Shown: positions 5,595-23,507 of the stretch, piece after piece | How positions within the stretch are numbered: the first letter of the stretch is position 1 | How the letters are laid out: every line of letters starts with the position of its first letter | Assembly: GCA_016198755.1 (NCBI GenBank) | Contig: JACQIB010000001.1 | Span: 96,001 to 160,000 of the forward strand | DNA: 64,000 nucleotides | Direction: 5' to 3' | DNA from: Candidatus Aenigmatarchaeota archaeon | GTDB taxonomy: Archaea > Aenigmatarchaeota > Aenigmatarchaeia > Aenigmatarchaeales > JACQIB01 | Made by a program: the position numbers and the translations under genes | Notes under the pieces: generated by a model | Told to the model about the DNA's origin: nothing | The model's database searches: none | The model's input: the letters and a program-made list of their open reading frames with translations, nothing else

Positions 5595-5717
5595 GCGCCG
5601 ATAGTCTAGTGGTAGGACCTCAGCCTTCCAAGCAGAAACCTCAGTGAGTTTCTGCACATCCGGCAATCCCGGTGTAGAAAGCTGATGACCAGGGTTCAAA
5701 TCCCTGTCGGCGCACCA
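5595..5717 (+). tRNA. tRNA-Gly(TCC) with 49-nt intron at 37/38 (5631-5679)
   Basis: GCGCCGA/TCGGCGC acceptor, TCAGC/GCTGA anticodon stem; intron folds into two hairpins. Confidence 0.92.
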
Positions 5718-19796: not shown

Positions 19797-20336
19797 ATGG
19801 CACCCAAGAAACTTGTACAAGTTCATATAGGACTCCATAAACCCCGTCAATATAAAGAGTATAGAGTGTTTTACATACCAAACCCTCTAAGCGATTTTAG
19901 CATGGGCGGTTGTTATGCCCCCGCTTCTACAATTGAAGAGTTTGAAGACACTGTAGTGAGAGGTACACCTGCACTTATATCTGATGTGCGCCCTCCGTTT
20001 ATAGCAAGCTTTGCCTATTCCCTTATACATGATAGTGACGTGGCTGTGACAGCATACCCTCATTTAGTTATAAGAGAAGTTTTTGGAAAGGGCTCTTATC
20101 CCCACTGGAGAGGGTTGGGTGATAGGCTGGGGGGAAGGACGAGTATCTTAAAGCTTTCAGAAAAAACAGGTGCTGGTGTTCCACAAAGACCAGGAGTTTT
20201 AACAGAAAGAGATGTAAAGATAGATTATATGGAGCCAGATCAACCTCAGCAGCCTATAAATCCAAATGAGTGGGAAATGGTTCCAGTTAGCGGGAATATG
20301 GTGGAGTTCAGGCCACGCAGGCTGGGCCCGCAGTAA
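19797..20336 (+). CDS. Hypothetical protein
   Basis: 179-aa ORF; no motif. Confidence 0.55.
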   Translation: MAPKKLVQVHIGLHKPRQYKEYRVFYIPNPLSDFSMGGCYAPASTIEEFEDTVVRGTPALISDVRPPFIASFAYSLIHDSDVAVTAYPHLVIREVFGKGSYPHWRGLGDRLGGRTSILKLSEKTGAGVPQRPGVLTERDVKIDYMEPDQPQQPINPNEWEMVPVSGNMVEFRPRRLGPQ

Positions 20337-20428
20337 TCATTCTGCAAAGCAAGTCCAACAGGTTTATAAGGGCACATTATTAAACAAAAATAGATAACTT
20401 TATATATACTTGTGCCCATACAATAAAT

Positions 20429-21370
20429 ATGGTTTACTTAGAAAATATCGAAAGGGGAGGCAAGACCTATTACTATATTACTAAGAATATTAGAGTCGGT
20501 GATAAAAAATGGAAGAAAATAAGAAAGTATATAGGCAATAAGCCTCCCTCAAAGGAACAGACAAAAAAAGCGGTTGGAGAGATTGAAAAAGAGGCGTTAA
20601 AAAAAGGCTTCATGAAGCCGGCTTCTAAATATGTTTATTTGAGCAACGAGGAAGCAGAGAAGCTGCAGGATTTGAAAGAGGTTTTTAACAAATGGTACGG
20701 AAAACTGAGTGCCATAGAGATAAAAAAATATGAAGATGACTTTGTTGTAAGATTTACGTATAACTCAAATGCTATTGAAGGAAACCGTTTAAGCCTTCGT
20801 GAAACAAGCATGATTTTAACAGAGAACATAATACCTGCTGGTGCCACTCCCAATGATTACAATGAAGCCATAAACTCAAAGGATTGTTACGAATTCATGA
20901 AAGTATATAGTGGAGAGTTTAATCAGAAATTTTTACTGAAAATCCACGAATTGCTTACAAAGAACACTAACTGCAAAATTATAGGCAATTATAGGGATCA
21001 TGAAGTCAGGATTTCCGGCTCTGACTGGGTTCCTCCTGCTCATGAAAAGATTAGAGAAGAGATGAGAAAAGTTTTCCAGTGGTACTATTTTGCCAGAAAG
21101 AAACTGCATCCTGCTGAATTGGGCGCTATTTTGCACAATAAATTAGTAAGAATCCACCCATTTGCTGATGGTAATGGCAGAACATCAAGAGTTATAATGA
21201 ACTGGATACTGATGAAGAATAAATTTCCAGTGTTTTATGTAGAACTACGAGATAAAATCAAATATTATGAAGCTGTTGAAGAAGGAGATAAAGGCAATGA
21301 CAAAGCAATAGTACATTATATTGCAAAAGTGCTGATGGAACAGTATACGTTTAAGTCAAATGGAAGATAG
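20429..21370 (+). CDS. Fic-family protein with inhibitory motif
   Basis: HPFADGNGRTSR active site; upstream SNAIEGN motif. Confidence 0.93.
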   Translation: MVYLENIERGGKTYYYITKNIRVGDKKWKKIRKYIGNKPPSKEQTKKAVGEIEKEALKKGFMKPASKYVYLSNEEAEKLQDLKEVFNKWYGKLSAIEIKKYEDDFVVRFTYNSNAIEGNRLSLRETSMILTENIIPAGATPNDYNEAINSKDCYEFMKVYSGEFNQKFLLKIHELLTKNTNCKIIGNYRDHEVRISGSDWVPPAHEKIREEMRKVFQWYYFARKKLHPAELGAILHNKLVRIHPFADGNGRTSRVIMNWILMKNKFPVFYVELRDKIKYYEAVEEGDKGNDKAIVHYIAKVLMEQYTFKSNGR

Positions 21371-21572
21371 TTCAGCGAGAAAAATGAAATCACCCACAAA
21401 AATACGGCATTATAGAATCAGGCCGCGCAGAAAGGCATAGAGACCATATGGGTTTATAAAGGCTGCTTTCCCAGTATAGGGAAGTGAGGTAGAGAGTAGT
21501 TTTGATTTCTATATGAGTTTCAAATATAACATACTTCTCGAATGAGAAAATTTAAAATAGGGGGTGAAAATA

Positions 21573-21719: not shown

Positions 21720-21819
21720 TTCCACATCAGGAGTTTGAATTTAACAATCCATTTTCATGGGCTTTAGTTTTTATATGCCCAGCCAATTAATTAATATTAA
21801 GCAAAGTAATCATATTATT

Positions 21820-22815
21820 ATGATTAACATTGATTTTTTGCCAGATTCACCCAAAATACCCTTCAAAAATTACCTTGAAGATATACAGATAAAAAGAAAG
21901 CGTGGGAGTGATTCTATAAGATTTTATAATGTAAGAGATTATTTTTTAAATCTTATAAATAAGAGCGGAATAAAAAGAAGAAAAATATACGAAATGCTAG
22001 ATGTAAATAGGACTACATTCAATAATTGGATAGGTAAATCTAAAAAAGATGTCGGCATACCTATACAATATGCTCTAACATTGCTACAAATGTTTGGTAT
22101 GGGAAAGGATGATATATTATTTAAAAATGTTAATATTTACTACGGTTGTACAAATTCTAATAAATATAAATTGCCAACGGATATGACGCCTAAGCTAGCC
22201 TATCTAATAGGACAAATAATGGGTGACGGCCACTTATCAAATCCAAAAGATCTTATATCAAACGGATCTTTATATAATGCAGAGATAAGAATTACGAAGG
22301 GTGAAATAAAACAACTCAGATTGTTGACATCTATATTTTATGATATTTTTCATTATAAACCACCTATTTTCAGGGAAAAATCGTTTTATAGACTTGTAGC
22401 GCGATCAAAAGTTATTCACAGATTTTTGCATATCGTATGCGCCATACCAAGCGGTAATAAGAAAAACAAAACCTATATACCAGATATGATAATTAAAAAA
22501 GATGATTTTATAAAATGTTTTATTGGAGGATTTTTTGATTCTGATGGTTGCATAGTAGTTAAAAATAAAAATATTCGTGTGATTTCAATGAAACAGCATA
22601 ATATAAAAATCCTTCTCGATATCAAACATCAGCTTAAAAAATTTGGTATAAATATATCTGGCATATACAAAGATAGAGGAGTAAGAAACGGAACATCTAC
22701 ACTAAATTATGTTCTCAACATAGGTAGAGATGAAGAAAAACAAAAGTTTATAAAGATCATACCGTCTCTAAAGGTTATGGAGGTGTCGCGATTATATGGA
22801 AAATTTAGCATCTAA
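21820..22815 (+). CDS. Free-standing double-motif LAGLIDADG homing endonuclease with N-terminal HTH
   Basis: LAYLIGQIMGDG and FIGGFFDSDG motifs; HTH-like IYEMLDVNRTTFNNW; visibly AT-rich; ORF opens at 21757. Confidence 0.85.
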   Translation: MINIDFLPDSPKIPFKNYLEDIQIKRKRGSDSIRFYNVRDYFLNLINKSGIKRRKIYEMLDVNRTTFNNWIGKSKKDVGIPIQYALTLLQMFGMGKDDILFKNVNIYYGCTNSNKYKLPTDMTPKLAYLIGQIMGDGHLSNPKDLISNGSLYNAEIRITKGEIKQLRLLTSIFYDIFHYKPPIFREKSFYRLVARSKVIHRFLHIVCAIPSGNKKNKTYIPDMIIKKDDFIKCFIGGFFDSDGCIVVKNKNIRVISMKQHNIKILLDIKHQLKKFGINISGIYKDRGVRNGTSTLNYVLNIGRDEEKQKFIKIIPSLKVMEVSRLYGKFSI

Positions 22816-23507
22816 AGGTATACACATAGCTATCATCCCGGACGGAAAATAAGGCCGGAAACCGGAGATGGGCTGAGAAAAGGGGGAAGCCCCGCTGGTG
22901 GGGCCATATACATGGGGCAAAGAAGCTGGAAGATGTATCTTCATGGTGTGCAGATCACCCTGAAATAAAAACAGTTTCAGTTTATGCGCTTTCAACTGAA
23001 AATCTTGGCAGGGACTCCGCAGAATTGAATAAGCTTTGGACAATCTATAAAGATGAGTTTGGAAAACTGATGAAAGATAAAAGTACAAAGAAAAACCAGC
23101 TTCGGGTAAATATAGTAGGAAACACAAATGCATGGAGAGCTGATGTAAAACAGGCTGCAAAGGATGTAATGAACACAACAAAGCAGTATACTAACAGGGT
23201 TTTAAACATAATGCTTGCCTATGGCAGCAAGTTCGAGATTGTAGAGGCAGCCCGTTCAACCTTTAATAAAGGGGTTAAAATAGTGCCTTCCGTGGAAAAG
23301 CTTTTCAATCAATTCCTTTTGATTCCAGAGCCAGTTGATTTGGTTATAAGAACAGGAGGGCAGAGAAGGCTTTCCAACTTTTTGCTATGGCAGGCTGCTT
23401 ATGCAGAACTTTACTTTACAGATACTCTCTGGCCAGATTTATCAAGGAAAGAGTTTGAAAAAATCCTGCGCTGGTATACTGGCCAGAAGAAAAAGTTCGG
23501 CCTCTAA
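22796..23507 (+). CDS. uppS: cis-prenyltransferase UppS interrupted by a 13-nt putative intron (22848-22860)
   Basis: GGAGGTG RBS; removing 13 nt yields HIAIIPDGNRRWA..GH..YALSTEN..VDLVIRTGG.RLSNFLLWQAAYAE (232 aa). Confidence 0.88.

Follow-up and report, generated by a model that had tools for sequence, protein, structure and literature searches.

The uppS gene of this archaeon raises the question of whether it is dead, or whether a reading frame that is interrupted in the DNA is made whole in the RNA. The window, meaning the whole stretch of 64,000 nucleotides that was analysed, corresponds to positions C5:96001-160000 of a genome (G000) that counts 890,842 bp in 6 contigs and is 89% complete. 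As the sequence-only reading had claimed, and as can be read directly from the letters, uppS has a good ribosome-binding site and an ATG at 22796, and its unspliced frame 1 ends after 18 codons at a TAA (22850-22852). Downstream of position 22860 the frame is open up to the terminal TAA, and this second part by itself matches the Pfam profile PF01255 over positions 4-219 of 219 (E 8.8e-64, 215.5 bits), the residues that precede the match, up to Asp-Gly, coming from the first part. More precisely, the full catalytic motif Asp-Gly-Asn-Arg-Arg-Trp exists only once the 13 nt at 22848-22860 are removed, in which case 52 and 644 coding bases add up to 232 codons. The earlier claim that this deletion gives back the Pro-Asp-Gly-Asn-Arg-Arg-Trp motif and a protein of 232 aa was thereby reproduced. 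On the 3' side lies a convergent ORF of 520 aa, which we take to be class I lysyl-tRNA synthetase-like and which, by synteny, also neighbours uppS in five relatives (G001-G005). The features of the locus, together with those found in relatives and elsewhere in the genome, are collected in Table 1.

Table 1. Positions of the features discussed in the text; numbers without prefix are window positions, others are given on the contig or locus named
Feature	Position	Strand	Details
LAGLIDADG homing-endonuclease-like ORF, free-standing, 352 aa	21757..22815	+	LAGLIDADG_3, E 4.9e-12
Shine-Dalgarno-like GGAGGTG	22779..22785	+	10 nt 5' of the uppS ATG
uppS exon 1 (predicted)	22796..22847	+	17 codons and the first base of the Asn codon
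Relaxed bulge-helix-loop (BHL) motif (predicted)	22834..22870	+	MFE fold, element table
Micro-intron (predicted), 13 nt	22848..22860	+	holds the in-frame TAA 22850-22852
uppS exon 2 (predicted)	22861..23507	+	stop codon 23505-23507 included
Convergent ORF, 520 aa	23504..25066	-	context only; ORF list, synteny
EndA paralog pair	G000 C1:37748-38807 (locus L042 1462-2521)	-	profile matches
LAGLIDADG ortholog in G005	L097 2493-3449	-	sequence match
LAGLIDADG ORF	C1:67849-68493	-	abuts tRNA with predicted 13-nt intron
LAGLIDADG ORF	C3:180884-181861	+	outside the window; ends at a conserved RNA gene
LAGLIDADG ORF	C2:203162-203833	-	outside the window; ends at a conserved RNA gene
Fifth LAGLIDADG ORF	C2:239304-239831		neighbour not recognised
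uppS inserts, site 1			G000 13, G005 23, G026 21, G046 21, G065 20, G106 20, G108 19, G117 20, G118 16, G123 33, G128 33, G135 26 nt
uppS insert, second site	8 nt upstream of the G000 site		G023, 31 nt
uppS inserts, third site	between the Gly-Ala and Lys codons		G125 (L053) 32, G123/G128 (L086/L087) 29, G135 (L088) 52 nt

The answer that we favour, and in which we have good confidence, is that the 13 nt are a relaxed (BHL) intron of the bulge-helix-bulge (BHB) type in the uppS pre-mRNA. Such a micro-intron had been proposed from the letters of the window, and the proposal is now supported, strongly so where relatives are compared, by relatives, by covariation, by the EndA and RtcB genes, by selection and by 13-nt tRNA introns, each of which is considered below.

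In G000 itself, the MFE fold of 22826-22878 (-16 kcal/mol) coincides with the fold that had been drawn for this RNA, namely an 8-bp exon-exon helix, a 3-nt bulge, a central helix with 3 of 4 pairs and a loop. The outer helix joins 22834-22841 to 22862-22870 with one bulged A, while the central helix is formed by three pairs between 22843-22845 and 22855-22857 and by an A.G mismatch (22842/22858). The 3' bulge counts 3 nt (22859-22861) and adjoins a 4-bp outer helix that extends to 8 bp, and the 5' cut site falls within a 9-nt loop (22846-22854). A cut after the second nucleotide of each bulge, the EndA rule on which the sequence-only reading relied, takes out exactly the 13 nt, as seen from the restored frame and motif; the second base of the 5' bulge is then the last of exon 1, and the predicted intron consists, in order, of 1 nt, 6 nt of loop, the 4 nt that form the central helix's 3' strand, and 2 nt.

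Taken alone, this fold is not beyond chance (z = -1.85, 6 of 200 shuffles folding as well); the weight of the intron reading comes from relatives. The G000 motif is the weakest of its family, and the strict hBHBh' motif, with two 3-nt bulges, a 4-bp helix between them and flanking helices, is absent from G000 and complete or nearly complete in G026, G065, G046, G023 and G123. The components of the relaxed motif (BHL / HBh'), which are a central helix, at least one canonical 3-nt bulge and an exon-exon helix, are all present in G000. In the 10 genomes tabulated, the outer-helix pairs that are contiguous from the central helix number 4 in G000, 3 in G123 and G128, and 1 in the other seven.

The distribution of uppS and of its inserts was followed at two levels. 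Within the order, a PF01255 copy is found in 41 of 42 genomes, G000 included, and the match starts late in three of them (G000, G026 and G023). Within the class, 319 of 371 genomes have a PF01255 match, and inserts were sought there by viewing 22 weak or split matches, by a pattern scan, by tblastn, which led to G005, and by a covariance model (R1). The pattern scan returned 21 matches versus 7 in its reversed-pattern control; nine of these lie within uppS, the 12 outside uppS were dropped, and the inserts of G000, G005 and G046 were overlooked. The covariance model gave 57-80 bits to intron-bearing sequences versus at most 35 bits to intron-less ones, added G046 and overlooked G005. In total, at least 17 inserts of 13-52 nt were recovered in at least 14 genomes, at three sites in uppS, and this census is a lower bound, since part of the 319 loci was inspected and the scans overlook divergent forms.

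The site occupied in G000 (site 1) holds inserts in at least 12 genomes from 4 families of the class. An alignment of uppS with that of relatives had been put forward as a check on the intron, and it brought out inserts of 16-33 nt in eleven genomes besides G000, at the same site and in identical codon phase. One of these genomes, G026, carries an in-frame insert with two stop codons exactly at the G000 site. The third site is located some 20 codons downstream of site 1, and as G123, G128 and G135 have inserts at both, their genes would each hold two introns. The intron of G000 itself appears to be a shortened member of this same-site intron family in the class. A split uppS match in a further genome (G173) was rejected as an intron: the gene, which is GC-rich, simply has its frame shifted by 1 nt.

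Archaeal EndA is described, in the available part of one source, as cutting between base 2 and base 3 of each bulge (PMC2738675). With this cut applied as a fixed rule, removal of each of the 17 inserts at the three sites leaves a restored frame with its conserved residues, and at site 1 Asp-Gly-Asn-Arg-Arg-Trp/Tyr is recovered in 12 of 12; the lengths of the inserts fall in all three classes modulo 3, and the rule still holds. All inserts share one layout: a stretch of four bases ahead of the 5' cut region has as its pairing partners four bases close to the insert's 3' end; on the 5' strand this stretch is followed by three unpaired bases, and on the 3' strand three more unpaired bases come after the central helix. 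At site 1, the 5' strand of the central helix is supplied by the Asp-Gly codons. Except in G000, all inserts contain an internal hairpin of 2-11 bp. Of 10 site-1 genomes that were folded, 8 have an MFE fold with both the central helix and a 5' bulge of 3 nt; the exceptions are G117 and G000, and for G000 the central helix is predicted and the 5' site stands in a loop.

In addition, the pairing partners change together. In an alignment of 9 distinct site-1 sequences (G128 being identical to G123, and G005 and G046 standing outside), 92.9% of the cells are paired versus 29-45% when the partners are slid by 1-3 columns, and 4 of 13 pairs have changed on both sides. The covariation score was reached by none of 500 shuffles, a figure that does not amount to a probability because the 9 sequences are related. 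The most telling of these pairs couples the Asp codon, at its synonymous third position, with a base of the intron, as C-G in 6 sequences and U-A in 3. In the family (f1) to which G000 and G005 belong, the outer helix covaries as well (CCGG/CCGG in G000, CCUG/CAGG in G005), and the A.G mismatch at the outer position of the central helix is common to the two genomes. In an intron-less relative known from a metagenome contig (L103), different Arg codons stand at the outer helix and are unable to pair.

As regards the enzymes, G000 has two EndA ORFs side by side, 172 and 177 aa long; each of them shows PF02778 as well as PF01974, N- and C-terminal domains being present in both. The best match of one subunit is 3iey_A (E 8.7e-29), which in the heterotetramer of N. 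equitans is the catalytic alpha subunit, and this N. equitans-like subunit has a similar loop insert. The roles of a Tyr, a His and a Lys residue in EndA we take to be catalytic: in the subunit that has the Tyr and the His, the residue aligned to the Lys, as placed by alignment to the N. equitans and M. jannaschii enzymes, is Ala; the partner subunit has another residue in place of the His. EndA of the (alpha-beta)2 and epsilon2 types is described as cleaving relaxed motifs in the accessible portions of two papers (PMC5829648, PMC4033280). The two-subunit layout and the likeness to N. equitans alpha point towards an EndA type that may accept relaxed motifs, and the Ala at the Lys position speaks against the intron reading. 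The ligase RtcB is also encoded in G000 (PF01139, E 1e-141). The RtcB match is split (profile positions 1-50 and 48-426) within a frame of 1010 aa at C5:42797-45628, upstream of the window, and the gene seems to carry an intein-sized insert in the RNA ligase. Elsewhere in the genome, LAGLIDADG is matched within three long frames (849, 861 and 1088 aa), which suggests further inteins; the first of these frames is read as SAM synthetase.

The tRNA genes of G000 offer a comparison within the same genome, since two of them have predicted introns of 13 nt with the 1+6+4+2 build encountered in uppS. The first is a tRNA-Met on C3, found by ARAGORN and scored at 47.5 bits by Infernal, whose predicted intron has a central-helix mismatch at the position that matches the mismatch in uppS; cmscan reported nothing at this locus, and the intron rests on ARAGORN and the Infernal score. 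The second lies on C1 (48.8 bits with Rfam), has 18 loop positions instead of 5 and is read as tRNA-Ala(GGC). Both introns would have to be spliced for the tRNAs to work. More generally, only 16 tRNA matches exceed the Rfam cut-off in 890 kb, many of them 83-127 nt long, which suggests a tRNA set that is heavily disrupted by introns or split, and ARAGORN lists 9-14 tRNA genes. G000 appears to depend heavily on the tRNA-splicing pathway. Examples of tRNA matches within the window are found at 89-198, 2085-2158 and 5595-5714. A scan of the whole G000 genome for frames joined by BHB motifs gave 907 hits at the correct cut versus 895-960 in 16 wrong-cut controls and is without power.

On these grounds, the following course of events is proposed. 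Base pairs would form between the Pro-Asp-Gly codons of exon 1 on one side and, on the other, the insert's 3' end together with the first codons of exon 2. This pairing would mimic the anticodon arm of an intron-bearing tRNA, with an outer helix, a central helix of four positions, a 3' bulge of 3 nt and, within a loop, the 5' site. The two-subunit EndA of G000 would cut after the second base of each bulge, and RtcB would ligate the uppS exons. Translation of the mature mRNA would yield a cis-prenyltransferase UppS of 232 aa with an intact Asp-Gly-Asn-Arg-Arg-Trp motif, whereas the unspliced mRNA would yield only a peptide of 18 residues. We infer that both cleavage and ligation take place on the uppS mRNA.

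The serious rival that remains accepts the intron family as real in the relatives and holds that the copy of G000 can no longer be spliced, uppS being a very recent pseudogene; we consider it unlikely. It draws on the fact that the G000 insert is the shortest of all, has no inner helix h' and has a mismatch in its central helix, and on the lack of a uppS match in 52 of the 371 class genomes (11 of the 98 high-quality ones), which indicates that loss of the gene is tolerated in some lineages. However, the relaxed BHL parts are all kept in G000, no other member of the family has so long an outer helix without interruption, and the two tRNA genes have predicted introns of like build. Besides, the 214 codons of exon 2 are free of stops, its Pfam score is like that of relatives (215 bits, relatives 211-275 bits), and its comparison with the intron-less uppS of L103, with which 202 of 216 residues (94%) are identical, gives a dN of 0.036 at a dS of 0.61, that is, a dN/dS of 0.059. 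Exon 2 is under strong purifying selection, and a pseudogene would, given this ratio, have to be very young. The sequence-only reading was to be given up if a second, intact uppS existed while this copy was under relaxed selection: PF01255 occurs once in this 89%-complete genome, and neither relaxed selection nor further disabling changes were found in uppS.

Far less probable is a translational bypass, in which ribosomes would take off at the GGA 22844-22846 and land on the GGA 22857-22859, skipping 13 nt. G000 does have the matching GGA 13 nt downstream, followed by an Asn codon, but the take-off codon is not adjacent to the stop, which comes one codon further, so that the combination known from T4 gene 60, matched codons and a stop right after take-off, is not found here. 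Moreover, the matched GGA codons occur in G000 only: G026 has no Gly codon before the resumed frame, and in G005 a hop from GGU to GGA would give Asp in place of the conserved Asn. The covarying helices and the inserts at the two other sites would also be left without explanation.

Least credible of all is that the CGGAA repeat gave rise to an error of assembly or sequencing, or else that a programmed ribosomal frameshift is at work: CGGAAA is present twice, 13 nt apart, at the insert, and 13 nt equal a +1 shift, but the Logan contigs of 4 of 4 DNA runs cover 22600-23100 at depths of 61, 61, 37 and 10 with 0 differences and 0 indels, and the in-frame inserts with stop codons of G026, G046 and G123 are beyond rescue by frameshifting. 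All four are groundwater metagenomes from a single study, and the window itself may derive from them; no RNA run was listed as containing the stretch. As the four run-level contig sets agree, the insert is no one-off assembly slip. DNA reads had been named as the means to confirm the 13 nt, and reads without them as a reason to abandon the intron: the insert is unchanged in the contigs of all four runs.

If the 13 nt are an intron, as we think probable, the ORF that precedes uppS deserves attention. This LAGLIDADG ORF of 352 aa, which shares its final 20 nt with the beginning of uppS, has two LAGLIDADG-like motifs in its translation. G005, which besides G000 is the one member of family f1 with an intron, has an ortholog with 49-50% identity and two internal stop codons upstream of its uppS, and both the endonuclease gene and the intron are absent from L103 and from the five intron-less members of f1 (G001, G002, G003, G004 and G006). 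The roughly 101 nt of L103 at this place correspond to about 1,071 nt in G000 (21781-22851). The remaining 12 intron-bearing genomes showed no close LAGLIDADG homolog next to uppS. Another stretch of the window, 20322-21417, is missing from the otherwise syntenic L103 and is a second recent insertion near uppS; it contains an ORF of 313 aa with a Fic motif (20429-21370).

In G000 as a whole, PF14528 is matched by 9 open frames, 5 of which are of free-standing size. Among the latter, four lie directly against a conserved gene at its 5' end, namely uppS, two tRNA genes and the 16S rRNA gene, the three beside RNA genes ending at that 5' end or within the gene. Two of the four genes so abutted carry predicted 13-nt introns (uppS and the C1 tRNA), the remaining ones being an intron-less tRNA on C3 and the 16S rRNA. 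In the class, 168 of the 371 genomes have relatives of the LAGLIDADG protein, both as free-standing ORFs and in frames of more than 1000 aa, and this homing-endonuclease load is unusually rich for genomes below 1 Mb.

The uppS tree, built from 66 sequences extracted by tblastn and biased in that it holds all intron-bearing loci and the intron-less ones already fetched, needs 9 intron gains or losses, of which well-supported branches make at least 7 unavoidable. Intron-less sisters stand at short distance from G000, G005, G026, G065, G117 and G023. This scattered presence of the intron fits either mobility or frequent exact loss.

It is possible, although we regard it as doubtful, that the micro-intron and the upstream LAGLIDADG gene form one mobile unit that spreads by homing. 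The endonuclease would then cut intron-less uppS within the codons of its invariant catalytic motif; a BHB intron of 13-23 nt would split this target and shield its carrier; and repair would copy the endonuclease gene and the intron jointly into new genomes. If true, this would account for the location of archaeal mRNA introns in the codons of catalytic motifs, for the intron-bearing and intron-less sisters across the uppS tree, and for the four out of five free-standing LAGLIDADG ORFs that abut conserved genes. A comparable arrangement is known from cyanophages, in which a free-standing endonuclease, F-CphI, and a group I intron of psbA that has no endonuclease of its own take part in collaborative homing. 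As in that system, an endonuclease gene lies beside a gene whose intron is too small to hold it, and intron and endonuclease are jointly present or absent in close relatives. Unlike the self-splicing phage intron, that of uppS would be of the protein-spliced BHB type and resides on an archaeal chromosome, and its endonuclease is putative.

Among known systems, the closest to uppS is cbf5, the gene of a pseudouridine synthase. A BHB intron in the cbf5 pre-mRNA of Crenarchaeota is said to have been described by Watanabe in 2002. In the part of a 2020 article that is available, the cbf5 intron is presented as the only other BHB intron reported besides that article's own case in a 5' UTR (PMC7714728), and other predicted mRNA introns in archaea are called unconfirmed in a partial text of an earlier one (Yokobori 2009, PMC2738675). 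Searches over the main texts of freely accessible articles brought up no report of an intron in uppS, nor of mRNA introns in archaea of the DPANN type. According to the same portion of PMC2738675, the crenarchaeal cbf5 intron is a short intron in a protein-coding gene, with a relaxed BHB motif, a cut between the second and third bulge residue, a location in the codons of a catalytic motif and a patchy pattern of gain and loss among relatives, in all of which the uppS inserts resemble it; its authors link it to hetero-oligomeric EndA (PMC2738675). The differences are that uppS is another gene, in a host of another superphylum-level lineage, called DPANN-like from its genome size and the similarity of its EndA, and that it has three insertion sites, up to two introns per gene, lengths down to 13 nt and, in one family, a free-standing LAGLIDADG gene beside the intron. 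Besides, splicing of cbf5 is confirmed by cDNA, whereas the uppS intron is predicted from sequence comparison.

Two other classes of substrate can be set beside uppS. The relaxed introns of pre-tRNAs (BHL, hBH, HBh'), as far as the available parts of two sources describe them, have the same motif geometry and follow the same cutting rule (PMC4033280, PMC5829648). Unlike these, the host RNA of uppS is an mRNA, which means that splicing must compete with translation starting 52 nt upstream. The BHB motif in the 5' UTR of Haloferax HVO_1309 is likewise, in the accessible text, an mRNA substrate of the splicing endonuclease, but its site is in an untranslated leader and the frame is uninterrupted (PMC7714728).

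Taken together, these comparisons make uppS, most likely, the second archaeal protein-coding gene family known with an endonuclease-spliced intron, after cbf5. Splicing of mRNA by the tRNA-type machinery would then be no crenarchaeal oddity, as it would also operate in a distant, uncultured lineage with small genomes. The uppS inserts would provide a natural series of substrates, from 13 to 52 nt, for the requirements of EndA, and the link to an endonuclease, if real, would offer a mechanism for the origin and the spread of such introns. Finally, gene callers will label uppS genes of this kind as truncated or as pseudogenes, so that the synthesis of the lipid carrier would be under-reported in the metabolic reconstructions of these archaea.
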